Shown here piece by piece: positions 13,147 to 62,243 of a stretch of 64,000 bases of DNA. Position 1 is the first letter of the stretch. Every line of letters begins with the position of its first letter. The notes beneath the pieces are model-generated. The model worked only from the letters and a program-made list of their open reading frames with translations, made no database searches and was not told the origin of the DNA. The position numbers were made by a program, and so were the translations under genes. Source of the stretch: Thermoanaerobaculia bacterium (GTDB lineage Bacteria; Acidobacteriota; Thermoanaerobaculia; UBA5066); the NCBI GenBank assembly GCA_963809425.1, contig CAWEJK010000013.1, positions 49,359 through 113,358 on the forward strand, given 5' to 3'.

Positions 13147-14043
13147 ATGATCAATTACCCACGGTCGAGGCGAGCCCATCTCCGCGTGACGCTCCTGGCC
13201 GGCGCGGTCCTGGCGGCATCGCGCGGGAGCGCGCAGGAGACCGGGCCGCCGATCAGCGCGTCGAGCGCGGACGTACCCGCTCCCCACGAAGTGGCCCGGC
13301 CGTCCAGCCCGCCGTCGTTCCCGAAGATGGTGCTCCTCGACACGGGGCACGTCCTCGGGTCGCCGTTCCGCTGGGGAGGCCGCGAGTGGGCTCTGCTGGC
13401 GGCGTCCACGGCGGCGGTCGCGGCGCTGACGCTGGCGGACAGCGCCGTGAGCGACGCGGCGCGCGAACGCGGGTCCACGCTCGGTTTCTTCGGGGACACG
13501 CTCGAGGGGCTCGGCGACGCCCGCTCGTTCGTGCTCCTCGGAGGGTTCTACCTGGCCGGCGCGATCGGACACGACACGAAGGCGAAGAACGTCTTCTTCG
13601 ACGGACTGTCGGCCAGCCTGATCGCGAGCGGGATGCTCACGCCGGTCCTTTCCACGCTCGTCGGGCGCGAGCGGCCGACGGCGGGACAGGGCGAATATGC
13701 GTTCCATCCGTTCGGAGGACGCTCGTTTCCCTCGGGTCACGCGACCCAGGCGTTTGCCGTCGCATCGGTGATCGCGACGTCCTACGACCAGCTCTGGGTG
13801 AAGGTCACGGCGTACGGAGCGGCCGCGGTGACGGCTTACGTTCGCGTCCAGCGGGGCAAGCACTTCGCGTCGGACGTCGTCGCGAGCGCGGCGATCGGCA
13901 CGCTGGTCGGCCGCTCCGTCGTCCACTTCAACCGAAAGCTTCGCTCGGGACAGAAGGAGCCGGAGAGCGCGGGCGCTCGCCTCACGATCCTTCCCGTTCT
14001 GGGCGGCGGCACGTTCGGTTTTTCCGCGAGTCTCGACTTCTGA
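13147..14043 (+). CDS. PAP2-family (acid/lipid) phosphatase
   Basis: 298-aa ORF carrying the PAP2 motifs GRERP, PSGHA and RVQRGKHFASDV. Sigma-54-type promoter at 13104-13118. Confidence 0.85.
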   Translation: MINYPRSRRAHLRVTLLAGAVLAASRGSAQETGPPISASSADVPAPHEVARPSSPPSFPKMVLLDTGHVLGSPFRWGGREWALLAASTAAVAALTLADSAVSDAARERGSTLGFFGDTLEGLGDARSFVLLGGFYLAGAIGHDTKAKNVFFDGLSASLIASGMLTPVLSTLVGRERPTAGQGEYAFHPFGGRSFPSGHATQAFAVASVIATSYDQLWVKVTAYGAAAVTAYVRVQRGKHFASDVVASAAIGTLVGRSVVHFNRKLRSGQKEPESAGARLTILPVLGGGTFGFSASLDF

Positions 14044-36314: not shown

Positions 36315-37040
36315 TTAGTGCCCGGTGTGGCCCGCATGCGGGTCTGCCGCGGCGGGCGCCTCGTGCCCCGCGTGGCCGGAATGGAAAAGGCGGATGCCGA
36401 AGCCGCGGGCGAGCGTGATCAGGGCCACCGCGACGAGGAGCGCGCCCGCGACGCGCGCGACGTTTCGCCGCCAGACCGCCGAGAGCATCGTTCCGAACAT
36501 GGCCGACACGAGGAGCGCCGGGACGGTGCCGAGCGCGACGCCCGCCATCGTGAGCGCGCCCGCGAGCGGCCGGCCGGTCGCGGCCGCGGCGCCGAGTCCG
36601 GCGTAAACGAGCGGGCACGGGAAGAAGCCCATCGCCATCCCGACGACGAGCGGGAAGCCCGCGGGTCGCGTTTCGAGGAGCGGGCGCATCACGGAGGACC
36701 AGACGGGCGCGAGGGCACGCGCCAGCGCGTCGTCGCCGCGCCCGAGCAGGCCGAGGAGGACGAGCCCGGCCGCGAGAAGCGCGAGGCCCGCGACGACTGA
36801 GACCACTCGCCCGCCGAGATCGAGCGCCGCGCTCTTCACGATCGCGCCGCCGAGGGCGCCCGCGAGGGCCCCGAGGAACATGTACGAGGTTGCCTTCCCG
36901 GCCTGCAGGAGGAGCTGGCTGACGACGAGCGCGCCGCTTCGCGCGCCGGCCGAGGTGGCTGCCGCGAATCCCCCGCACATCCCGACGCAGTGGGCGGACG
37001 CCGCGAACGTGAGGGCGGCGGCGACGAGGAGATCGTTCAC
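36315..37040 (-). CDS. TauE/SafE- or DsbD_2-like membrane protein (cbb3 cluster accessory)
   Basis: 241-aa polytopic ORF with HCVGMCGG and FFPCPLVY motifs and a His-rich tail (HSGHAGHEAPAAADPHAGHTGH). Overlaps the ccoI stop by 4 nt. Confidence 0.7.
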   Translation of the reverse strand: MNDLLVAAALTFAASAHCVGMCGGFAAATSAGARSGALVVSQLLLQAGKATSYMFLGALAGALGGAIVKSAALDLGGRVVSVVAGLALLAAGLVLLGLLGRGDDALARALAPVWSSVMRPLLETRPAGFPLVVGMAMGFFPCPLVYAGLGAAAATGRPLAGALTMAGVALGTVPALLVSAMFGTMLSAVWRRNVARVAGALLVAVALITLARGFGIRLFHSGHAGHEAPAAADPHAGHTGH

Positions 37041-39142
37041 GCGGCGGCTCCGGGCAGCGGGTACCGGGTCAGACGCTGCGAGTGGACGACGACGAGGAGG
37101 CTCGACGCAATCATCGCGACCGCCCCGAAGAGCGGATGCAGGAGGCCGCAGACGGCGAGCGTGATCCCGATGCCGTTGTAGAAGAAGGCCCAGAAAAGGT
37201 TGAGGTGCGCGGTCCGGACGGTCCGGTGCGCGAGGTCGATCGTCCAGGGCAGCTTCCTGAGGTCGCCGCCGAGGATCGTGACGTCCGCGACCTCGCGCGC
37301 GAGGTCCGTGCCGGACTCCAGTGTGACGCCCGCCGACGCGACGCCGAGCGCGGGCGCGTCGTTGATCCCGTCGCCGACCATGGCGGGCGACTCCCCCGCC
37401 TGCACCGACGAACGGATCAACTCCAGCTTCCCTTCCGGCGAGAGACCGCCGGTCGCCTTCAGGCCCGGGAAGTCCGCGGCGAAGGACGAGACGCGGGAGG
37501 GAAGATCGCCGGAGAGAACTTCGAGAGAAAGACCGCGGGCCTGGAGCGCGCCCACGGCCTCGGCAGATTCGGGCCGGATCGCGTCGGAGAAGAAGAAGAT
37601 TCCTGCGAAGGTGCCCGCAGCAGAGACGAAGGCCGCGGTCGCGCCTGTGGCCACCCCGGCGGCCGCCACGTGGCCGGGAGCTCCGGCGAAATCCGCCGTT
37701 CCGATCCGAACGACCTCGCCGCCCACGCGCCCTTCCACGCCGAGCCCGGGCCGCGCCCTGAACTCTTCCACCTTCAAAGAAATCTTCTCTTCTCCCCTCT
37801 TCTCCCCTGCCGCCGCGCAGATCGCGCGGCCCACGGGGTGCTCGCTGCCTTCCTCGAGCGCTGCCGCGAGGGCGAGTAGCCGGTCACGGTCGAACGGCGG
37901 AGCAGGGCGCAGGTCCGCGAGCGAGAGAACGCCCGTCGTGAGAGTGCCCGTCTTGTCGAGAAATACGCGCTTCGCCCGCGCGAGAGCCTCGAACACGGCG
38001 CCCGACCGCACGAGGACGCCGGCGGCCGCCGCGCGGCCGACCGCCGCCGTCGAGGCGAGCGGCGTCGCGATGCCGATCGCGCACGGACACGCAATCAGGA
38101 GGACCGAGAGCGCGTTCATGAGGCCTTCGCCCGGGCCCGCGTGGCGCGTCCAGTACGCGAGCGTGAGGAGCGCGACGGCGAGGACGAAGGGCACGAAGGC
38201 GGCGGAGAGACGGTCCACGACGGGCGCGAGCGTGTACCGGCCGGCGCGCGACTCCTCGACGAGCTTCACGAGGCGCGCGACCGTCGTCTCGGGGCCGGTC
38301 CGGCGGGCCTCCACGAGAAGGCTTCCGTCCTGGTTCAACGTGCCCGCGGCCACGTGATCGCCTGGTCCGCGCGCCGCGGGAACGCTCTCGCCCGTTATCT
38401 CGGCTTCGGAGACGCTCGCCGTCCCGTCCACGATCGTGCCGTCCACGGCGATGCGCTCGCCGGGCCGCACGCGGATCACGTCGCCCGGGTGCAATGCATC
38501 CACGCTCACGCGTTCCTCGACGCCGTCGACGACGCGGGACGCCTCCGCGGGAAGCTGACGCACGAGCGCGGAGAGCGCGTCGGTCGTGCGCGCGCGGGAC
38601 GACGCCTCGAGGTAGCGCCCGATCGTCACGAAGAGGAGGATCCCCATCGCCGTGTCGAGGTAGATCGGGCCGCCGCCCGAGAGGACCGACCGGACCGAGA
38701 GCGCGAATGCCGCGACGATGCCGATCACGATGAGCGCGTCCGTGTCGAGCCTCCGGTCCTTCAGGCGCCTGAGGCCCCGGTTCAGGAACGGAAGGCCGAG
38801 GAGAAAGAGCGCCGGGGTCGCGAGCGCGAGGAGCGCCCAGCGCACCCACGCCTCGCCCGCCACCCGGTCCGCCTCGGCGCCGCGCGTGTACAGGACGAAG
38901 CTGCACATCATGACGTTCATCGCGAGGAACGCTCCGACGCCGACCGCCATGAGCAGGCCCGACGCCTGGCCGTGGCCCGAGGCGCCGCCCGTGAGCCGAT
39001 GCGCGAGCGCGCACCCGCCGCAGCAGTAGCAGGGTCCGGACGGGAGCCTCGAGACACCCACGACGCGCAGGCCGCAGTGCGCGCAGAGGGGTAGCGGGGG
39101 CAGAGTCTGGCTGGACGCCGCGGCGGCCCCGATGGCGCTCAA
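37037..39142 (-). CDS. ccoI: heavy-metal (Cu) P1B-type ATPase, CcoI/FixI-like
   Basis: CPC (LIACPCAIGIATP), DKTGTLT, GDGINDAPAL and N-terminal Cys motifs (CAHCG, CCGGC). I favour TTG 39142, which overlaps the stop of the upstream small ORF (TTGA). The ORF remains open up to 39265. Confidence 0.88.
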   Translation of the reverse strand: MSAIGAAAASSQTLPPLPLCAHCGLRVVGVSRLPSGPCYCCGGCALAHRLTGGASGHGQASGLLMAVGVGAFLAMNVMMCSFVLYTRGAEADRVAGEAWVRWALLALATPALFLLGLPFLNRGLRRLKDRRLDTDALIVIGIVAAFALSVRSVLSGGGPIYLDTAMGILLFVTIGRYLEASSRARTTDALSALVRQLPAEASRVVDGVEERVSVDALHPGDVIRVRPGERIAVDGTIVDGTASVSEAEITGESVPAARGPGDHVAAGTLNQDGSLLVEARRTGPETTVARLVKLVEESRAGRYTLAPVVDRLSAAFVPFVLAVALLTLAYWTRHAGPGEGLMNALSVLLIACPCAIGIATPLASTAAVGRAAAAGVLVRSGAVFEALARAKRVFLDKTGTLTTGVLSLADLRPAPPFDRDRLLALAAALEEGSEHPVGRAICAAAGEKRGEEKISLKVEEFRARPGLGVEGRVGGEVVRIGTADFAGAPGHVAAAGVATGATAAFVSAAGTFAGIFFFSDAIRPESAEAVGALQARGLSLEVLSGDLPSRVSSFAADFPGLKATGGLSPEGKLELIRSSVQAGESPAMVGDGINDAPALGVASAGVTLESGTDLAREVADVTILGGDLRKLPWTIDLAHRTVRTAHLNLFWAFFYNGIGITLAVCGLLHPLFGAVAMIASSLLVVVHSQRLTRYPLPGAAA
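37771..37793. repeat. AT-rich intragenic motif copy (ccttcaaagaaatcttctcttct) in ccoI
   Basis: 23-nt exact match to 61355-61377 in an unrelated gene. Encodes EEKISLK. Confidence 0.8.
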
Positions 39143-39324
39143 CGGCCGGGCGCCCGGGTCGCGACGGGCTTGCCCGTCTCGAGGTCGAGCAGGACCGGGT
39201 GCGCCTTCTCCGCGCCGCGCCAGACCCAGACGAGACCGATCAACGCCGCGAGCGACACGATCCACAGGAGCGCGGAGAGGACGCGTCCCTCGGCCGGGAA
39301 GAACGAAGCTTTCGGCGTCTTCAT
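39139..39324 (-). CDS. 61-aa single-TM protein between ccoG and ccoI
   Basis: GGAGG lies just upstream of ATG 39324. The ATG shares one base with the ccoG stop. Hydrophobic helix VLSALLWIVSLAALIGLVWVW. It appears in the ORF track only as the tail of a spurious 1100-aa ORF. Confidence 0.5.
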   Translation of the reverse strand: MKTPKASFFPAEGRVLSALLWIVSLAALIGLVWVWRGAEKAHPVLLDLETGKPVATRAPGR

Positions 39325-48964: not shown

Positions 48965-49489
48965 TCAGGGCTCGGATCGCGAGAGGAGGGCCAGGATCTC
49001 CTTGAGCTCCGCGACGACGCGCGCGATCCGTGGGTCCGGCGCCGGCGGGGTTGCGACCGGCACCGTCTGTCCGCTGGCCGGCGACGTCTCGACGAACACC
49101 GGAGCGCTCACCCTCGAGGGTGACCGGCGCGCGAGAGGGCGCTCCGGGGGCTTCCCGGCCTTCTCGGAAGGCGTCTCGACCTTTCCCGCGTCGGCCGCGT
49201 CGAGGGCCGGACTCGCGTCGAGAGCGCGCGCGCCCGCCGCCTCGCTCTCGAGGCGCTTCTTCGCGCCCGCGATCGTGTAGCCCTCGTCGTAGAGAAGCCG
49301 CTTGATCTGCCCGATCAGCTCCAGCTCGCGCGCGCTGTACGTGCGGGGGCCGGGGATCGAGCGGTCGGCCGCGAGGAGCGGGAATTCCGACTCCCAGTAA
49401 CGCAGGACGTACGGCTGCACGTCCGCGATGCGGCAGACGTCCCCGATCTTGTAGCGGGCCTCGGAGTTCTCGCCCGGCGTTTGCGTCAT
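48965..49489 (-). CDS. MerR-family transcriptional regulator
   Basis: 174-aa ORF with an N-terminal MerR HTH (YKIGDVCRIADVQPYVLRYWESEF...YSARELELIGQIKRLLYDEGYTIAGAKKRL). Confidence 0.85.
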   Translation of the reverse strand: MTQTPGENSEARYKIGDVCRIADVQPYVLRYWESEFPLLAADRSIPGPRTYSARELELIGQIKRLLYDEGYTIAGAKKRLESEAAGARALDASPALDAADAGKVETPSEKAGKPPERPLARRSPSRVSAPVFVETSPASGQTVPVATPPAPDPRIARVVAELKEILALLSRSEP

Positions 49490-49544: not shown

Positions 49545-50861
49545 TCAGTCGTCCCTCTTGACGACGAACTTCAGGGGCACGCCGTTGAGGTTCCACTTCT
49601 CGCGGATGCGGTTCTGCAGGAATCTCTCGAAGGAGAAGTGCAGAGGCTCGGTCCGGTCCGCGAAGAGACGGATGAGCGGGGGCTCGGCGGCTACCTGCAC
49701 GGCGTAACGGATTTTCATGTTGCGGCCCGAGCGCCCGCGCGGCTCCTCCCGTTCGAACGATTTCTGCAGCAGCCGGTTCAGCTCGCCCGTGGACATCCGC
49801 GTCGTGAACCTCTTCGCAAGCGCGTCCGCCTCGGGCAGGAGGCGCTGGACGCCCTTCCCCGACGTTGCGCAGAGCGGCAGGAAAGGCGCCTTGCGAAGGA
49901 AGATGAAACGCCGCTCCGTGTCGTGCTTGAGCTCGGCCGCGCGCTCGCGGTCTTTTTCGATCAGGTCCCACTTGTTCGCGACGAGAAGAACGCCGCGGCC
50001 GGCCTCTTCCGCGTAGCCCGCGATCGTGGCGTCCTGCGCCGTGATGCCGGCGGAGGCGTCGAACACGATGACGACGAGCCGCGCCCGGTCGATCGCCTTG
50101 CGGGACGCGACGATCGAGAGCAGCTCGGCCGAATCCGTCGTCTTTCCCTTGCGCCGGATTCCCGCCGTGTCGACGAAGAGATACTCCCGGCCGCCCCGGG
50201 ACAGTCGCACGTCGATCGAGTCGCGCGTCGTGCCGGCGATCTCCGACACCATCACGCGCTCCGCCCCGACGAGCGCGTTCACGAGCGACGACTTCCCGAC
50301 GTTCGGGCGGCCGACGATCGCGATCGGAAGAGGCTCGGTGCGCGTGTCCGGATCGAGATCCGACGGCAGCACGGCCTCGATCGCCTCGAGGAGCTCGTCC
50401 GCGCCCGTGCCGTGGAGGGCCGAGACGCCGATCACCTTCGGAAAGCCCAGCGAGAAGCCGTCGGCGAGCGACTCGGCCGCGGCTTTCGCGTCGCACTTGT
50501 TCCAGGCGACGACCACGTTCTTGCCGAGGGCGTGGAGCTTGCGGGCGAGCCGCTCGTCCTCGGGCAGGCGCCCCGCGACGCCGTCGAGGACGAACAGGAT
50601 GAGGTCCGCGTCCGCGACGGCCGCGAGAGCACGGTCGCTCGTCCACGCCGCGAACCCGCCGGCCGCGTCGAGGTCCAGGCCGCCCGTGTCGACGAGCGTG
50701 TACCGTCGCCCTGACGGCGTTTGCGCCGTCATCTCGAGCGCGTCGCGCGTCATCCCCGGGCGATCGTGCACGAGCGCCCGGCGCTCCCGCGCGAGCCGGT
50801 TGAAGAGGGCCGATTTCCCGACGTTCGGGCGGCCGACGAGGACGACACGAAAAGCGTTCAC
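49545..50861 (-). CDS. der: ribosome-associated GTPase Der (EngA)
   Basis: 438-aa ORF with two G domains (GRPNVGKSALFN, DTGG; GRPNVGKSSLVN, DTAG, NKWD) and a KH-like C-terminus. Confidence 0.95.
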   Translation of the reverse strand: MNAFRVVLVGRPNVGKSALFNRLARERRALVHDRPGMTRDALEMTAQTPSGRRYTLVDTGGLDLDAAGGFAAWTSDRALAAVADADLILFVLDGVAGRLPEDERLARKLHALGKNVVVAWNKCDAKAAAESLADGFSLGFPKVIGVSALHGTGADELLEAIEAVLPSDLDPDTRTEPLPIAIVGRPNVGKSSLVNALVGAERVMVSEIAGTTRDSIDVRLSRGGREYLFVDTAGIRRKGKTTDSAELLSIVASRKAIDRARLVVIVFDASAGITAQDATIAGYAEEAGRGVLLVANKWDLIEKDRERAAELKHDTERRFIFLRKAPFLPLCATSGKGVQRLLPEADALAKRFTTRMSTGELNRLLQKSFEREEPRGRSGRNMKIRYAVQVAAEPPLIRLFADRTEPLHFSFERFLQNRIREKWNLNGVPLKFVVKRDD

Positions 50862-50876
50862 CGGGCCATCACTCCG

Positions 50877-53264
50877 TCAGCGCCGCCGCCGCGTCTTTCC
50901 ACGCGACGGAGCCGGCGACGGCCGGCGGCCGCGGCCCTTCTGCTGCGCGTGGACGGCCCCGGCGCGCGGGCCGCCGCGCGTCCCCGCGCTCTCGCCCACG
51001 GGCACGAAGTCGAGACCGCGCTTCTCGGCGTCGGCTTTCACGAGCTTCACGCGCAGGCGGTCTCCGAGGCGGTAGACGCGCCCCGTCGAGGAGCCGACGA
51101 GGCGGTGCTCGACGTCCTCGTACCGGTAGAAGTCGTCCCCCAGCGACGAGATCGGCACGAGGCCGTCGACGTAGATGTCCTCGAGCGTGACGAACAGGCC
51201 GAAGCCCACGACCGCCGAGACGTACGCCCAGAACTCCTCGCCCACTCGCGACGAAAGGAACACGAACTTCTTCCAGGCGATCGCCTCGCGCTCGGCCGAC
51301 TCGGCGCGCCGTTCGCGCGACGAGCAGTGCGCCGCCGCCTCGTGGAACCAGCGCGTGCGGCCGTCCGCGTCGTCGGCCGCGGGCGGCCGGCGGATCGCGA
51401 GCCACTCGACGAGCGCGCGGTGGACGAGAAGGTCCGGATACCGCCGGATGGGGGACGTGAAGTGGCAGTAGTGCTTCGCAGCGAGCGCGTAGTGCCCGCG
51501 GCACTCCTCGGAGTAGATGGCCTTCTTCTGGGCCCTGAGGACGAGGTCCGAGACGAGGCGTTCTTCGGGCTTTCCCTGCGCCCGGTCGAGGATCGCCTGA
51601 AACGTCGCCGGGGAGACCTCTTCCTCGTCCTCGGGAATGACGTAGCCGAGCGGGCCGAGCACGACCCGGATGTCCGCGAGGCGGCTCTCGTCCGGCCGGT
51701 CGTGCACGCGGTAGAGGGCCGGCGTCGGGACGAGCTCGAGGTGCTTCGCGACCGCCTCGTTCGCGGCCAGCATGAACTCCTCGATGAGGCGGTGCGCCTC
51801 GTTGCGCACGGCCTTCAGGATCGCGACGACGTCGCCGGTCTCACTGAGGATCACGTCCGCATCCGGCAGGTCGAAATCGAGGGAGCCGCGGGAGACTCTT
51901 TTTGCTCGGAGAAGAGCGCCGGCCCTCTGGGCGGCGCGAAGCATTGCGGCTACGTCCGAAGAGACCGCGGATTTCTTAGAAAGGGGATCAGCCGGCGGCT
52001 CGCTTCGGCCCTCTGCCGTGCTCGATTGCTGCGCTGTAGGTTCGCGCCGGGTCGCCGCCGGTGCGCCGCGCCTGCTGCCCTCCCCCTCTTCACCTTCTAA
52101 GAAATCCCCTACTGCCGTATATGTCAAACGGGCCCGACTCTTGATGAGAGACCTGAAGAACTCGCTCTTCACGGTCTCGCCCTGCCTGTTCAGTGTGAGC
52201 ACCGCGGACAGCGTCCGCCGCTCCTCGTTCGGGCGCAGCGAGCAGAGGTCGTTCGAAAGGCGCTCCGGGAGCATCGCGATCGCGCGGTCGGGGAAGTAGA
52301 CCGACGTGCCGCGTTCGAAAGCCTCGGCATCGAGAGCGCTGCCGATGGGCACGTAGTGCGAGACGTCCGCGATGTGAATCCCGATGCGGAAGCAGCCGTT
52401 CGGAAGCGGTTCGGCCTCGATGGCGTCGTCGAAGTCGCGCGCGGTCTCGCCGTCGATCGTGACGATCGTCCGTCCCGTGAAGTCCGCCCGAAGCTTCCGC
52501 TCGTCGGTCCCGACCGCCCCGTTCGCGGCCTCGGCCTCGGCGATCACGCTCTGCGGGTACGTGCGCGGTATTCCCCACTTGCGGGCCACGACCTCGACGT
52601 CGACACCGGGGTCGCCCTCGAAGCCGATCAGCTCCAGCACCTCGGCCAGGGCGAGCCGGCGGTCGTCGGGGTACGCGGTGATGCGCGCCTCCACGAAGAT
52701 GCCCGTCGGGGCCGACAGGTCCTTGCCGTCCGGCACCGCGAGCCGCGCGTCTATCCGGCGGTCGAACGGCACGATGAACGTGCCCTCCGGGCCGCGCGCG
52801 ATCTTTCCGACGACCGTTTCGCGACGCCTCTGCAGGACCTTCACGACGACGCCCGAGGCACGCGGCGCGAAGCGCGACGCGGGCCGCTTGCCCTTCGGCT
52901 CGACTCTCGGGGCTTCGACGCGCACGAGAACGACGTCACCGTCGAGCGCGCTTGCCACCGCCGTCACCGGCACGTCGGGAACACCCGGCACTCCGGACAG
53001 GAGGAACGCCCGGCCTTCGCCGCGTATCGCGAGCGTGCCCGCCTGATAGTCGGTGAACTCGATGCGCGAGAGCTTCTCGCCCTTGACGCGGACGATCTCG
53101 CCCCGGCGCTCGAGCTCGGCGACGGCTGCGCGAAGCGCATCCTCGCGGGACGGATCGGGATCCGCCCGCAGGACACGATTCGCGACCTCCGAAAACGAGA
53201 GGACGTGCGAGCCCCGAGGCTTCAGCGCCTCGAGGATCGCGTCACGGAGTCGTTGGGGCGTCAT
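50877..53264 (-). CDS. rnr: ribonuclease R, carrying an in-frame ~45-aa low-complexity insertion
   Basis: 795-aa ORF with cold-shock/OB N-terminus, RNB domain (TIDGETARDFDDA, FTSPIRRYPDLLVHR), S1 domain and a basic tail. The insertion is EGEEGEGSRRGAPAATRREPTAQQSSTAEGRSEPPADPLSKKSAVSS. Confidence 0.93.
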   Translation of the reverse strand: MTPQRLRDAILEALKPRGSHVLSFSEVANRVLRADPDPSREDALRAAVAELERRGEIVRVKGEKLSRIEFTDYQAGTLAIRGEGRAFLLSGVPGVPDVPVTAVASALDGDVVLVRVEAPRVEPKGKRPASRFAPRASGVVVKVLQRRRETVVGKIARGPEGTFIVPFDRRIDARLAVPDGKDLSAPTGIFVEARITAYPDDRRLALAEVLELIGFEGDPGVDVEVVARKWGIPRTYPQSVIAEAEAANGAVGTDERKLRADFTGRTIVTIDGETARDFDDAIEAEPLPNGCFRIGIHIADVSHYVPIGSALDAEAFERGTSVYFPDRAIAMLPERLSNDLCSLRPNEERRTLSAVLTLNRQGETVKSEFFRSLIKSRARLTYTAVGDFLEGEEGEGSRRGAPAATRREPTAQQSSTAEGRSEPPADPLSKKSAVSSDVAAMLRAAQRAGALLRAKRVSRGSLDFDLPDADVILSETGDVVAILKAVRNEAHRLIEEFMLAANEAVAKHLELVPTPALYRVHDRPDESRLADIRVVLGPLGYVIPEDEEEVSPATFQAILDRAQGKPEERLVSDLVLRAQKKAIYSEECRGHYALAAKHYCHFTSPIRRYPDLLVHRALVEWLAIRRPPAADDADGRTRWFHEAAAHCSSRERRAESAEREAIAWKKFVFLSSRVGEEFWAYVSAVVGFGLFVTLEDIYVDGLVPISSLGDDFYRYEDVEHRLVGSSTGRVYRLGDRLRVKLVKADAEKRGLDFVPVGESAGTRGGPRAGAVHAQQKGRGRRPSPAPSRGKTRRRR
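51969..52107. mobile_element. MITE-like ~139-bp element with 13-bp terminal inverted repeats inside rnr (in frame)
   Basis: ggatttcttagaa at 51969-51981 is the exact reverse complement of ttctaagaaatcc at 52095-52107. The segment encodes the extra residues that E. coli RNase R (sequence as I recall it) lacks at this position. Confidence 0.4.
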
Positions 53265-53363
53265 GTGTAGGCAGGCCGAAAGGCAGCGTGCCTCCGGGGC
53301 CAGTTCATTCTGCCCTAAGACCCGGATTTCCGCACGGGGGCTCGAGAAACGGCCGTTCGATCA

Positions 53364-53819
53364 TTGGATTGCGGGCAGCGTAAATGCCACGATGGAGATG
53401 ATCATCGACGCACCCAACGGCTGGACCGTTACGTCCGCGACCTACAGCGGGACCGCAGGACGGTCGCCTTTTTCCGGAACCACGACTGTTTCCTCAGCGC
53501 CCCCGGACCTTGCTCGATTGGCGCCGTGACTGCCGGGTACCAGAAGATCTACCTGACCGCAGGGCCCTTCACGACCGTCGCCTTCCCGGACGCCGCGAAC
53601 ATTTCCGTCACGTTTCTCGTGGGAGGCGCGCCGGGCACGTACACGCTGGGCTTCAAGGGCGGCGGCGGCAACGGTGCGGCGTTCGATTGCCAGGCGGCGC
53701 CGACGACTCTCGCGGTCACGTCGCAGTCGACCCCATTCATTCCTGCCCTGGACGCGAGGGGTGTCATCGTTCTGCTCGCGGCTCTCGCGATCTCGGGCTT
53801 CCATCTTCTCCGGCGGTGA
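53364..53819 (+). pseudogene. fragmentary secreted-protein gene ending in an IPTL-CTERM-like sorting signal
   Basis: The C-terminus PFIPALDARGVIVLLAALAISGFHLLRR resembles an IPTL-CTERM anchor. The N-terminal part reads sensibly only in another frame (IIDAPNGWTVTSATYSGTAG..., 53390-53529). No signal peptide was found. Confidence 0.4.
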
Positions 53820-54044: not shown

Positions 54045-55402
54045 TCAGCGGAAGTATCCGTTCACGTCGAAGACGACATCGGCCGTGGCGGCGCTGTCGT
54101 TCAGGATCGTGACCGACTGCGTCCCGTCCTGCGACAGGGCGACCAACAGGTTGTTGGCCCGTATCTTCAGCGCGTTGAAGTTGATCACGGTCGTCGAGGG
54201 CACCGCGTGGTCGGCCGGGTAGACACGGAAGTCTCCTACCGCCGAAGGGCCGACCGCCACGACGTTTCCCGAGACCACGACGGCATCGGACGGTATGCCG
54301 CAGGCCCCGGCAAACGCGAAGCTGCGTAGCTCCTCTGGACCGAGCGCAGGTCCTCCGAGTGGACTGACTGTGCCGCGCGTATCAAGGACGCGGCAGGGGG
54401 GCAGAGTGAAAAAAAGGAGCGCGAGCGATATCTGGCCGATCTGGTTGCCGCTGGACTGGCTGTACTCCGTAAACCAGAGGTTGCCGTCAGGGCCGAGGCA
54501 TATGTCGTAGGGGAGGCTATTGGCCGTCGGGACCGTGAACTCCGTGATGGTGCCGGTGGCGGTGATGCGGCCGATCTTGTTGGTGTTGGACTCCGTGAAC
54601 CAGAGGTTTCCGTCGGGACCAGAGGTGATCTGCGAGGGCCAACTTGACGGCGTCGGGATGGTGAACTCGGTAATCAAGCCTGCGGTGGTGATCCGACCGA
54701 TTTTGCTGCTGGCAGAAGACGACAAGGTTTCCACGAACCAGAGGTTGCCGTCTGGACCGGCGGTTATCCCCTCAGGCGCGCTGGCCACCGTTGGAATCGT
54801 GAACTCCGTGATGATGCCGGTGGTGGTGATGCGGCCGATCTTGTTGGCGTTGGACTCCGTGAACCAGAGGTTTCCGTCGGGACCAGAGGTGATCCCGAAG
54901 GGGATGCTGTTTGCCGTCGGGATCGGGAATTCCGTGAAGGCTCCGGCGGTGGTGACACGGCCGATTTTGTTACCAATCGCTTCCGTGAACCAGAGGTTGC
55001 CGTCGGGACCGGAGACAATCCATAAGGGGGCGCTGCTCGCCGTCGGGATCGGGAACTCCGTGATGACTGCCGGAAGGCGTGATGCGACCGATCGAGTTGT
55101 TGCTGCTCTTGTCCGTGAACCAGAGGTTGCCGTCAGGGCCGGAAGCAATCCCTTGAGGAGCTGCCGCCTGGCAGCGCGAACTCGGTGACGTCGCCGGAAG
55201 GCGTGATGCGGCCAATTCTGGCGCCATAGTTTTCGGTAAACCAGAGGTTGCCGTCGGGACCGGAAGCGATACTGAACGGGATGCAGGCTGGCGTCGGGAT
55301 CGGGTACTCGTGGATCGTGACTGCCATCGCAGCCCGAGATTCGAGGAGAACGGCCACGACACTGGCGACCCACAGAGTGATTGACCGCCCGGCTCCTTTC
55401 AT
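54045..55402 (-). pseudogene. Vgb (streptogramin-lyase)-like beta-propeller repeat protein, at least 2 frameshifts
   Basis: Repeats of ITEFxIPT...GPDGNLWFTE...IGRIT. Signal peptide and first blades at 55402-~55140, a second frame to ~54990, then 54045-~54990. C-terminal PPCRVLDTRG domain. Confidence 0.7.
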
Positions 55403-55567
55403 AGCGCCCTCCCGTGTGTCCTCCTCTTCGGCATTCCCGAAGACAGAACTGTCCTTGAACCTTATGCTGCGCCACGCCCAACGGGACCTGATGCAGTTGC
55501 ATCGAAGGCTCCCGTGGGAGTGGCTCTTCGCGCGGCGAACGGGTCAATGGCCCGTCCGCGCCGCCGA

Positions 55568-55789
55568 CTACGCCTGGCAAAGGACCAGCACGAAGAGGAG
55601 GCCGAGGATTAGCCGGCGTCGCCTATTGAGGCGAGCCCATTCGTCACGGGCGGCGACGATCTCCTCAAGGCTGGCCCTCCTCATCGGACCCCTTGCCTCG
55701 GATGCCATGATCCGTGCGGACAGGGCCCACTCTTCGTCGAGCGTCAGCGCAGGCAGAGATTTCGGCGACAACTTCATCGAAGCCGCCAA
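55568..55789 (-). CDS. hypothetical 73-aa tail-anchored protein
   Basis: ORF with a C-terminal hydrophobic segment (LILGLLFVLVLCQA). Overlaps the end of the upstream gene by 16 nt. No homology recognised. Confidence 0.3.
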   Translation of the reverse strand: MAASMKLSPKSLPALTLDEEWALSARIMASEARGPMRRASLEEIVAARDEWARLNRRRRLILGLLFVLVLCQA

Positions 55790-60257: not shown

Positions 60258-61320
60258 TTTGTTTCGGACCCGAGCGCATCCCGAGATGCCATGACGGAGT
60301 CGCGCTTCGGATTCTCCTTGAAGGGGAAGAGGGGAGGTGGAGTCAATTCCTTCGCGAAGGCGTCGATGGCCTCCGGATCTTCCAGCGCGCCCTTCGGCAT
60401 CTGTGCGTCGCGAACCGTCCAGCGGACGAGCTTCGTGAGCACGTCCCCAGGCCCCACTTCCGCGAAGCGGCGCAGCCCGGCCTCGCGCATGACCTTCAAC
60501 GTCGGTCCGAAAAGGGATGGAAGAGAGATTTGCTTAGAAAGGACATGGGCGGCCTCCTCGGCGGACTGCACCCGGCGGCCCAACATGGGAGCGAAGAGAG
60601 CCGACCGCGGCTGCGAGACGCTCACACCCCTTTCTAAGAAACTTTGCAGGCGCTCTACAAACTGGTTCAAGGCGAGTCGTGTGCATCGGGATCTTGATCG
60701 AAAGCAAATCTGTCTTCAGCGCCACCGGCCGAAAGGCGTCGACCGCCGACGCGACGAGCGCCCGCTCGCCCGAAAAGACGAACTGCGCGGCCGCGTTCTC
60801 GGTCGCGATCGCGAGGCGCGCGCGGTCGGGCGTCAGCGCGCGGAGCGTCGCCTCCACCGCCGGCCGCCCGAGCCCGATGACGTACGCCATCCCGCCATCC
60901 AGCTCCCCCCGCCGCGATGCTTCGGTCATGAGGCGCTCGGCCTCGAGGAGGACGTCGAGCGCGGCCCACGTCTCGAGCGAGCCGACCGCGACGAACGCGG
61001 CGTACGTCCCGAGGCTGTAGCCGACGGCGGCCGCGGGCTCGAGCCGATGGATGCGCCGAAGCGTTTCGAGCGCGGCGAGAGAGGTCGCAAAGACGCCGAC
61101 CTGGGCGGGCAGGTCGTCGTGAAGCGACGAATTGCCCTCTCCAAAGAACGTATCGGCGAGGCGAACTCCCGACCGCACGGAGATTTCTTCGAATAGAGAG
61201 GACGCGAACTCGTATCTGCGGGCGAGAGCCTCGCCCATCCCCGCCTTCTCGGACAACTGACCCGGAAAAAGCGCCGCGAATGAAGACGATCGCGGCTCGC
61301 CGAACGACGAGAGTCGTCAC
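60254..61320 (-). pseudogene. malonyl-CoA:ACP transacylase (FabD-like), two homopolymer frameshifts
   Basis: GTG 61320 overlaps the deacetylase stop (GTGA). Removing one base from the A5 run at 61266-61270 gives AAIVFIRGAFPGQLSEKAGMG. GYSLGTYAAF (GxSxG). Removing one base from the A3 run at 60659-60661 joins ...MHTTRLEPV to VERLQSFLERG... Confidence 0.8.
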
Positions 61321-62243
61321 GCCGCGACCCCCGACTTCTCTTCTTCTTTCTTCCCCTTCAAAGAAATCTTCTCTTCTTCTTTCTCTTTCTTTCTTTCCAA
61401 AGAAATCCCCTCTTCGGCCCTCGCCGACGAAATCGGGGCGAACGTCCATCGCTTCAGGAACCGCGCCCAACGGCCCTCGGTCCGCGTTCGCCCCGCGAAG
61501 TGGACGAGACTCTGAACGGGCGACAGCCCGGGCATCGCGGGGTGGTCCGGGTCGAGCTCCCAGGGATGCGCGTAGAGGACCGGCGGAGCCCCGGCGGCGA
61601 GAGACCGCTCGATCGCCGCCGCGACGCGGCTCTCGCGCGTCAGGCGAGCGCAGACGCCGCCGCCCCAGATCGCGCGAAAGCCGAAGAACGTGCCCATGAG
61701 CGGCGGGACTTCCAGAATCGGGCCCGATCCGGTTTCGAGCGTCACGGGGCGCGTCGGATTCGACGGGTCCCCGACCGGCGGCGCCGTCGTGAGCGAGGAG
61801 TCGAGCGTGAAGCGTTCCTCGGCGAGAACCGAGAACGCGGCGTTGTCGGCTCGAAGCATCGACCACTCCGGGGCGCGGAAGGACGTCACGGGCTTCCCGA
61901 CGATCTCCTGAAGCGTGTCGCGGCTCTTCCGGAGGTCCTCCCGAAACTCGGGCAGCGTCATCTCGAACACCCGGCGGTGGACGTCGCCGTGGCAGCCGAC
62001 CTCGTGCCCGGCGTCGGCGATACGCCGCACGAGCGACGGGTTCTGCCGCGCGATCCAGCCGAGGGTGAAGAACGTCGCCGTGGAGCCGGTCCCGTCGAGG
62101 AGCGCGAGCAGGCGCTCGACGCCGGCGTGAACGCGCTTTCCCCGGCCGGCCCACGTGGCCGGGTCCGCGTAGAGCGGATTCCCGCAGACGTGGAACCATT
62201 CCTCCACGTCGACGGTCAGGATCGGGACAACGCTCGCGCTCAC
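61317..62243 (-). CDS. polysaccharide deacetylase (DUF3473 / PEP-CTERM-locus subtype) with odd Lys/Glu-rich tail
   Basis: 308-aa ORF with LTVDVEEWFH, TFFTLGWIA and HGDVHRRV motifs. The tail ISLERKKEKEEEKISLKGKKEEEKS is encoded by the AT-rich repeat motif. Confidence 0.85.
   Translation of the reverse strand: MSASVVPILTVDVEEWFHVCGNPLYADPATWAGRGKRVHAGVERLLALLDGTGSTATFFTLGWIARQNPSLVRRIADAGHEVGCHGDVHRRVFEMTLPEFREDLRKSRDTLQEIVGKPVTSFRAPEWSMLRADNAAFSVLAEERFTLDSSLTTAPPVGDPSNPTRPVTLETGSGPILEVPPLMGTFFGFRAIWGGGVCARLTRESRVAAAIERSLAAGAPPVLYAHPWELDPDHPAMPGLSPVQSLVHFAGRTRTEGRWARFLKRWTFAPISSARAEEGISLERKKEKEEEKISLKGKKEEEKSGVAA
61355..61415. repeat. two direct copies of the AT-rich motif in the tail of the deacetylase gene
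   Basis: ccttcaaagaaatcttctcttct (61355-61377) and tccaaagaaatcccctcttc (61396-61415), within a polypyrimidine tract. Confidence 0.8.

Follow-up and report, generated by a model that had tools for sequence, protein, structure and literature searches.

In-frame palindromic repeats in housekeeping genes are best known from Rickettsia, a group with reduced, AT-rich genomes and an intracellular life. Here we describe an inverted repeat that lies inside the gene for RNase R in a Thermoanaerobaculia bacterium (NCBI GenBank assembly GCA_963809425.1). The window, by which we mean the whole stretch of DNA that was analyzed, covers 64,000 nucleotides (nt) of contig CAWEJK010000013.1 (forward-strand positions 49,359 to 113,358), and coordinates below count from its first letter unless a related locus is named. 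An earlier note on this DNA had described the repeat as the ends of an in-frame insertion of ~139 bp, similar to a Rickettsia palindromic element (RPE) or a MITE (miniature inverted-repeat transposable element). Our analysis shows it to be a single doublet from a family of palindromic repeats that is specific to this lineage.

Several described systems offer a comparison. REP (repetitive extragenic palindromic) doublets, or REPINs, consist of two inverted short conserved repeats and a less conserved spacer, and they measure ~100 nt. Doublets predominate, and singlets look like remnants of decay; the elements reach high copy numbers, persist for long within a clade, and are mobilized by REP-associated tyrosine transposases (RAYTs). 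Correia elements have a conserved body and a TA target duplication. The uptake signal sequences (USS) of Pasteurellaceae and the DNA uptake sequences (DUS) of Neisseriaceae are clade-specific words that occur on both strands at ~1 per kb, fall on native codons in frames that the protein tolerates and in weakly conserved protein regions, and at times form inverted pairs. RPEs are short, multicopy sequences with palindromic ends that reside in frame in unrelated housekeeping genes and are compatible with protein folding; their copies, of ~150 bp, share sequence throughout and encode a conserved peptide (PMC10969869). REPs, as one account outlines them, are extragenic, each being an imperfect palindrome with a GTAG or CGTC tag (PMC3733652). 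Correia elements carry promoter and integration host factor (IHF) sites (PMC10969869), and ~90% of MITEs were intergenic in a census of 183,232 genomes (PMC11602168).

Results

The inverted repeat in RNase R is not a chance palindrome

The open reading frame (ORF) that holds the repeat encodes 795 amino acids (aa) and belongs to RNase R. Pfam RNB was matched with an E value of 2.5e-103, and CSD2 and S1 were also matched. The closest solved relatives are the RNases R of Bacillus subtilis (PDB 8cdu, E = 1e-141) and Escherichia coli; the CSD, RNB, S1 architecture is present, and PDB RNase R matches lie on either side of the insert. As the earlier note had reported, GGATTTCTTAGAA at 51969-51981 (+ strand) and TTCTAAGAAATCC at 52095-52107 are exact reverse complements. 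They are 100% complementary over 13 nt with 113 nt between them, and the start-to-start distance of the two arms is 123 nt.

We counted four perfect inverted repeats of at least 13 nt with loops of at most 300 nt in the window (GC content, 67.8%), compared to a mean of 1.6 in 40 order-1 Markov simulations. If the repeat were a chance palindrome in an ordinary lineage-specific low-complexity loop, this count would speak in its favor, since ~1.6 such repeats are expected per window. However, the RNase R repeat is the only one of the four with eight or more A/T bases, and no repeat of this kind occurred in the 40 simulations. In addition, the 13-mer occurs six times in the window when up to 2 mismatches are allowed (0.25 expected), and the word recurs more than 100 times in related genomes with strict pairing. 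We concluded that chance is excluded.

The other three perfect inverted repeats in the window (7244/7380, CGAGCGCGCTCTC; 12670/12708, GACGCCGATCCGC; and 62319/62338, GACGGGAGAACGC) are all GC-rich, and their number is within chance. An Rfam E-value scan of 50800-53400 matched no RNA family.

Arms of one family are dispersed through Thermoanaerobaculia genomes

The arm consensus is a purine tail followed by GATTTCTTAGAAGGTGAAGAGGGG. We scanned a genome collection with one genome per species for the exact 20-mer GATTTCTTWGAAGGKGAAGA, and at least 116 stretches matched. Among the matches listed, 105 of 116 came from ~27 Thermoanaerobaculia/Acidobacteriota assemblies, with several per genome, dispersed over a 3.88-Mb chromosome. 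The remaining 11 were from unrelated, mostly low-GC taxa and are chance matches. For counts of mismatches, pairing, and interiors, we used a sample of 0.94 Mb of related loci (L numbers below are our handles for loci, and P numbers are those for orthologous proteins). The 14-nt core was found in this sample 96, 64, 79, and 137 times with 0, 1, 2, and 3 mismatches, respectively, versus 0, 0, 3, and 31 times in simulated sequence. Conservation around the core extends only from about -20 to +28 and takes in a (GAR)n tail, GATTTCTTAGAAGGTGAAGAG, and GGGG(A)GG; the outer end fades into the purine tail, and the tail start CCGAAGAG is enriched upstream of arms. The shared module is the 25-46-nt arm only. 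There are 5 to 6 arms in the 64-kb window and ~1 per 10-20 kb overall, and arms also occur at other sites of the relatives' RNase R-centered loci.

A heuristic based on open frames and GC content at third codon positions (GC3) placed 107 of 160 arms in a reading frame, a count that may be too high because stop codons are rare at this GC content and some arms may lie upstream of true starts. The heuristic frame readings were SSPSKKS (46 arms), DFLEGEEG (30), KISLKVK (11), LHLLRN (9), and FTFKEI (6), and five further assignments held stop codons and were spurious. A T variant of the arm was always found in the two frames where the A variant would yield TAG or TAA. Since the same arm is read in several frames and on both strands, with variants that avoid stop codons, the repeat is a DNA-level one that is filtered by protein tolerance. 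We also considered a peptide-level module (DFLEGEEG or SPSKKS) and rejected it, as the same DNA is read in five frames and on both strands.

The window holds further arms of the family (Table 1). The arm in the P-type ATPase gene is read in a frame where the T variant is needed to avoid TAG. It corresponds in position to what we take to be a native E/K-rich stretch of the nucleotide-binding domain (EKISLKVEEF), presumably ~3 residues longer than in CopA, with little net insertion. The tandem arms in the deacetylase gene are 39-40 nt apart. The FabD arm is convergent with the arm at 61355, at a distance of 173 nt; this pair spans the deacetylase/FabD junction, and a homologous pair is present in L003.

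We noted that the head of the arm, for example at 52084-52096 (- strand), reads AGAAGGTGA, which agrees with the canonical Shine-Dalgarno sequence, AGGAGGTGA, at 8 of 9 positions. An apparent start codon has an arm 5-25 nt upstream of it in some loci (L016 and L107).

Arms form convergent doublets around locus-specific interiors

Adjacent arms with up to 2 mismatches and no more than 400 nt apart were convergent in 45 cases, direct in 12, and divergent in 2. With 3 mismatches allowed, the corresponding numbers were 104, 27, and 6, and beyond 400 nt, arm orientation was unbiased. The start-to-start distance of paired arms was 27-283 nt, with a median of 115-120 nt; the RNase R unit (123 nt) is typical of the family in its spacing. 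The partner of an A arm is usually of the B type, GAT(T)TTCTTAGAAGGT(G/A)AAT(A/G)G, or a degenerate copy of it, and only 3 of 76 units were A-A. The B arm is an inverted, slightly differing form, GAT(T)TTCTTAGAAGGTGAATAGG. In RNase R, the A arm codes for G-D-F-L-E-G-E-E-G-E-G and overlies native FLEG codons, and the B arm on the coding strand encodes P-L-S-K-K-S-A-V-S-S-D; the ..SKKS.. motif is kept in insert-bearing RNase R orthologs. The arms paired with each other in the predicted minimum-free-energy fold of 78 of 82 units.

The interiors, by comparison, are private to each locus. BLAST of the RNase R interior (51984-52077) against the window and the 0.94-Mb sample matched RNase R orthologs only. 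An all-versus-all comparison of 79 units gave 32 pairs with similar interiors, of which 30 also had similar flanks and the other 2 were kinase paralogs. Whole-unit queries matched other loci over no more than ~46 nt, corresponding to arm plus tail. GC content at the three codon positions (GC1/2/3) was 0.77/0.60/0.82 for interiors versus 0.71/0.48/0.88 for flanks, pooled over 60 units. Short interiors, such as that of RNase R (0.68/0.84/0.72; central 75 nt scored), abound in A, R, G, and P and show no codon-position GC signature. A number of long "interiors" are clearly sequence of native domains, and the arms around these are probably independent, or else one arm is a chance match. We also considered a structured interior and rejected it; folding was barely better than that of controls (mean z, -0.6 versus 0.0), and inner arm heads left in the segments may explain much of this difference.

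Short segments bounded by this inverted repeat occur at many loci, an arrangement that would suit an inverton, in which a site-specific recombinase flips the DNA between the arms and changes the encoded loop of RNase R. When reverse-complemented, the RNase R unit is indeed open in frame and would read DFLERGSAGG...SPSKKS (ORF 51772-52299). However, an open antisense frame is expected by default at a sense GC3 of ~0.9 and is hence uninformative. Interior and flank orientation was concordant in 29 of 30 homologous (ortholog or paralog) unit pairs, and the remaining pair was ambiguous, not discordant. No recombinase was identified. We regard inversion between the arms as a most improbable explanation.

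The RNase R insert is in frame and differs in length among orthologs

A protein search returned an identical protein (P0001; 100% identity, on a 571-kb contig) plus more than 100 orthologs; those with a named source were labeled Thermoanaerobaculia or Acidobacteriota. In alignments, query residues 398-439 corresponded to residues 387-393 of B. subtilis RNase R (8cdu), and query residues 394-452 corresponded to residues 315-337 of E. coli RNase R (5xgu). There are ~35-36 extra residues at the insert relative to both proteins, in agreement with the earlier note, which had put the E. coli linker at roughly 35-45 aa shorter and had seen that the repeats bracket a low-complexity stretch. The segment from ARLTYTAV to RGSLDFD is 50-53 aa long in distant orthologs and in a few close ones, and it reaches 113 aa in others, with lengths of 50, 52, 59, 73-80, 88, and 113 aa represented (Table 1). 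The ends of the insert recur among orthologs (DFLEG(E)EG... and ...SPSKKS..ISSDV), and the middle is rapidly changing.

Distant orthologs without the insert (L123 and L124) have GAFLEGKPG or GALLEGQP at the position of the left arm, in GC-rich codons such as GCCTTCCTGGAGGGGAAG. Because GC-rich FLEG codons occupy the same position in these orthologs, the alignment indicates that the left "terminal repeat" (52093-52106) is native FLEG codons remodeled to the AT-rich word GATTTCTTAGAAGGTGAAGAG and not inserted DNA. Third positions in the left arm are 59% A/T (AT3, 0.59) versus 0.10 on average in the gene. Of the 655 other 7-codon windows, just 1 equals the left arm in AT-richness, which is kept across eight clade members. 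The net length gain of the window allele relative to insert-free orthologs is 105-114 bp.

These results uphold an in-frame, lineage-specific insert with inverted-repeat ends: the ORF is intact, and the ortholog alignment that the earlier note had called for shows the insert to be absent from distant orthologs and variable among closer ones. The size of ~139 bp must be revised, since 139 is not a multiple of 3 and the net gain is smaller. The description of the ends as terminal inverted repeats was right in that the pair is exact and the word is multicopy; it does not suit the arm at 52093-52106, which appears from the alignment to be remodeled host coding sequence.

In an AlphaFold2 model built from 39 orthologs (mean predicted local distance difference test [pLDDT] score, 66), residues 393-432 had pLDDT scores of 26-40 and no secondary structure, with helix 382-395 before them and helix 436-459 after them. 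We predict that the insert is a disordered loop of ~35-40 residues at the tip of an RNB-domain helical hairpin, with the ORF intact. The loop is apparently dispensable. We concluded that the interior of the RNase R unit is unique and seemingly unconstrained and that the locus is hypervariable in length.

One ortholog, P0087, has the insert read in another frame (..RRRSLRRIHLLRNPRSLRTSPACSA..), with the usual frame regained ahead of AHKASG. The cause is either two frameshifts that compensate each other or a mistake in assembly within the unit.

Relatives differ by the gain or loss of whole units

At the nuoF/nuoG junction, the two genes are adjacent or overlapping in L005 and L006, and ~72 extra nt are present in L003. 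In the L003 unit, a loop of 8 nt separates a B arm from an inverted A arm, and a tail is present as well. Similarly, the der-merR spacer contains a unit in L003 and none in L001, L006, or the window. L100 and L120 differ by an 81-nt block, as do L069 and L085, and the shorter alleles resemble a collapsed palindrome or a single arm. The tail of the deacetylase gene has 1 arm in L003, L005, and L006, 2 tandem arms in the window, and 3 in L004. Across the sample, homologous loci differ in length at arm sites in dozens of cases, by 24-189 nt. We concluded that relatives gain or lose units as blocks and that arm sites are hot spots of in-frame length change.

In L003, nuoF, which lies beside the ~72-nt unit, is called as two ORFs (145 and 287 aa).

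We also considered a classical MITE or RPE, that is, a defined element of ~139 bp with terminal inverted repeats that a transposase acting in trans inserted in frame. Such an element would account for the inverted ends, the small size, the lack of an ORF of its own, the multicopy arms, and the in-frame tolerance. However, the interior is unique, and this largely refutes the explanation as far as the interior is concerned. RNase R has gained a net 105-114 bp, and its left "terminal repeat" reads as host sequence. The nuoF/nuoG junction shows no target-site duplication, the outside of the unit blurs into a purine tail with no sharp end, and no autonomous partner was present in the 0.94-Mb sample. 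A classical element of this type is distinctly improbable. A MITE with a conserved body was also considered and was rejected, as BLAST of the interior and the all-versus-all comparison of 79 interiors gave matches limited to orthologs and paralogs.

The proposal that RNase R carries a copy of a 139-bp element fails, since the interior (51984-52077) matches only RNase R orthologs. The search for further copies that the earlier note had suggested gave a divided answer: the arms are multicopy in this genome and its relatives, and no second copy of the whole unit was found in the window or the 0.94-Mb sample. Likewise, the analogy with RPEs is apt as a description, but no shared body, target-site duplication, or autonomous element was seen (0.94 Mb; one junction) that would make the unit RPE- or MITE-like in a stricter sense. 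Because the repeated module is the 25-46-nt arm only, the arm units are closer to REPINs than to a classical MITE or RPE.

TABLE 1 Arms, units, and RNase R segments in the window and in related loci
Feature	Position or length	Strand	Details
RNase R host gene	50877..53264	-	795 aa; CSD2 + RNB + S1 domains; ORF, Pfam, PDB match
RNase R A arm	52078..52109	-	- strand reading GGG GATTTCTTAGAAGG TGAAGAGGGGGAGGG; core 52093-52106; exact match to family 20-mer
RNase R unit interior	51984..52077	-	Locus-specific, GC-rich; translated ..SRRGAPAATRREPTAQQSSTAEGRSEPPAD..; without codon-position signature
RNase R B arm	51954..51987	+	Tail GTCCGAAGAGACCGCG, core GATTTCTTAGAAAG (51970-51983), head GGGA
Arm in P-type ATPase ORF 37037-39265	37771..37784	-	GATTTCTTTGAAGG + purine flanks; in frame ..GEKRGEEKISLKVEEF..
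Two tandem arms in polysaccharide deacetylase ORF 61317-62243	61355..61408	-	Cores 61355-61368 and 61395-61408; C-terminal tail GISLERKKEKEEEKISLKGKKEEEK
B-like arm in FabD ORF 60534-61256	61182..61195	+	GATTTCTTCGAATA / GATTTCTTCGAATAGAG on codons SLFEEIS
L003 units absent from relatives	288-365 (nuoF/nuoG) and 13750-13871 (der-merR)		Larger der-merR unit with (GAGAAGGA)n repeats
RNase R segment, L001/L002	50 aa		Left motif only
RNase R segment, L005	52 aa		Two motif copies head to head, spacer absent
RNase R segment, L006	59 aa		14-nt perfect inverted repeat around 13-nt loop
RNase R segment, window	88 aa		
RNase R segment, L003	113 aa		Additional tandem motif copy + serine run

Elsewhere in the window, ORF 54045-55580 (- strand) contains repeated ..GPDGNLWFTE.. 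units of ~40 aa each, which from their sequence may form a candidate beta-propeller.

Discussion

We propose, with a probability of roughly 55%, that the inverted repeat in RNase R marks the two arms of one unit in a dispersed palindromic family that is specific to Thermoanaerobaculia, non-autonomous, and similar to REPINs and RPEs. A unit would consist of an A arm (purine tail plus GATTTCTTAGAAGGTGAAGAGGGG), a GC-rich interior private to the locus, and an inverted B arm, and the family would be non-autonomous selfish DNA of the REPIN, RPE, or MITE kind. Spread may follow a hairpin- or microhomology-dependent route, such as template switching or the action of a single-strand HUH-type enzyme, and the frequent landing of arms on arm-like native sequence, which they overwrite, could have the same explanation. 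We favor it over a cut-and-paste route because no target duplication is visible, the outer boundary is fuzzy, the interiors are unique, and arm-like native sequence is overwritten. After arrival, arm-arm hairpins and (GAR)n tails would drive slippage and could generate the RNase R allelic series of 50-113 aa. The insert peptide would be tolerated filler rather than a functional module.

Several observations weigh against this proposal. Filled and empty sites at nuoF/nuoG, the sole junction pair inspected at base level, showed no target-site duplication. Interiors at non-homologous sites had no similarity, and no whole-unit copy-and-paste event was caught among 79 units. An autonomous element with these ends was not apparent, there being no excess of convergent pairs at 0.4-8 kb (0.7-3 kb included) and no peak of such pairs at 1-2 kb in the 0.94-Mb sample, and no transposase or RAYT gene was identified, although whole genomes were not searched for RAYT genes. 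No GC-rich viral contig with the arm was found among 2.9 million viral contigs. At several sites, the arm occupies native codons and the length is changed little or not at all (GDFLEG in RNase R, the kinases, SLFEEIS and SFLEGG in FabD, and nearly the ATPase), and these look like in-situ remodeling rather than insertion. Lastly, the AT-rich third positions of the RNase R left arm persist in orthologs down to 71% protein identity, which suggests ongoing drive, conversion, or selection rather than neutral decay.

We considered carriage of the family by phages and rejected it. All four matches in the 2.9 million viral contigs were in phage DNA of 33-37% GC and are chance matches.

The main rival is that the arm is an over-represented word that evolved in situ and is functional or driven, as an uptake sequence or a paired binding site for a protein that structures the chromosome or regulates genes would be, and that the RNase R insert is an unrelated loop expansion in which two such words happen to lie. 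Wherever the protein tolerates it, point mutations or short-patch conversion would produce the word, and drive or selection would keep it. The arms on native codons without length change suit this explanation: GAFLEGKPG became GDFLEGEEG in RNase R, and the kinase, FabD, and ATPase arms are comparable. In Ser/Thr kinases (L024, L042, two sites in L046, L082, and L089), an A arm on VLPEDFLEGEE and a B-like arm on IYSFEEI are exactly 94 nt apart. They enclose native RFEREAxLLAxLNHP, and both lie on conserved sequence of the catalytic domain (VLPEDFLEGEERxxRFEREA). The same word is retained across species and genera, it is AT-rich against a GC3 of ~0.9, and both strands and several frames carry it, with variants by which stop codons are avoided. 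Coding-region USS and DUS are likewise reported to occur on both strands and in several frames and to avoid stop codons. However, compact units of at least ~72 nt are inserted between adjacent genes in one genome only. The density is ~1 per 10-20 kb, compared to ~1 per kb for USS/DUS. Strict convergent doublets with A/B asymmetry and a variable spacing of 27-283 nt, as well as tandem duplication of arms, also argue against a word that evolved in place, and arm sites are indel hot spots, which would be costly for functional sites in essential genes. We judge this explanation to be unlikely.

A phenomenon comparable to that in Rickettsia is seen here in Acidobacteria with GC-rich genomes, a group known from metagenome-assembled genomes of environmental origin. 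The AT-rich arms stand out sharply against these genomes and are carried by ~27 assemblies among the matches listed. The family offers a natural experiment in the tolerance of proteins for disordered inserts, through the RNase R series of 50-113 aa, and another in the persistence of short repeats under strong compositional pressure. Conserved arms, unique interiors, and overwritten proto-sites together pose a puzzle that could point to an unrecognized mobilizing enzyme or a paired DNA-binding system. We put forward tentatively, as a possibility that we still doubt, that the "arm-only" palindromic doublet is an undescribed repeat class that colonizes coding DNA, both overwriting arm-like sequence and creating blocks with unique interiors. 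An unrecognized single-strand or template-switching enzyme, or selection on paired sites, would lie behind such a class, which would be distinct from MITEs, RPEs, REPINs, and USS. In practical terms, the units cause length heterogeneity and low-complexity tails in the predicted proteins of this clade, and annotators should recognize them.

Full-text literature searches gave no description of such a repeat for Thermoanaerobaculia or Acidobacteria. The best reading is that the family consists of short palindromic interspersed repeats that are tolerated in coding DNA, of a kind that we did not find described. The units resemble RPEs in their palindromic ends and their in-frame residence, and the ORF appears, from its sequence, to be intact both in the window and in the more than 100 orthologs, whose inserts vary in length. 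In contrast to RPEs, which share their full length and a peptide, only the 25-46-nt arms are common here and the interiors are unique. In addition, some arms overwrite native codons, and the host is a 68% GC acidobacterial genome from environmental metagenomes rather than an AT-rich obligate intracellular one.

MITEs and Correia elements share a different set of features with the arm units. Like MITEs in general, the units have terminal inverted repeats and small size and no coding capacity of their own. Like Correia elements, they combine ~25-nt terminal inverted repeats with a size of 100-150 bp, number more than 100 copies, are present or absent from strain to strain, and could form long stems in transcripts. 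The conserved body, TA duplication, and promoter and IHF sites of Correia elements are absent from them.

The native-codon arms recall USS and DUS, since they arise without indels (the RNase R left arm versus L123 and L124, and the kinase and FabD arms). The arms and the uptake words also have in common that they are clade-specific, are found on either strand, and at times form inverted pairs. However, their density is 10-20 times lower, and USS and DUS differ from the obligatory convergent doublet with A/B asymmetry, the block insertions, and the tandem duplications seen here.

REPINs and bacterial interspersed mosaic elements (BIMEs) are similar in that inverted doublets of a short conserved repeat predominate (45/12/2 for convergent, direct, and divergent pairs). 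They also share with the arm units a less conserved spacer, a total size near 100 nt, singlets that resemble the remains of decay, many copies, and long persistence within a clade. Unlike a REP, the arm GATTTCTTAGAAGGTGAAGAGGGG lacks self-complementarity and a GTAG or CGTC tag, and a large share of arms apparently lie in reading frames, whereas REPs are extragenic. Unlike in REPINs, the length and sequence of the spacer are unconstrained and no RAYT gene has been linked to the units. The REPIN would be the closest analog of these units in architecture, and the Rickettsia palindromic element would be the closest in behavior.

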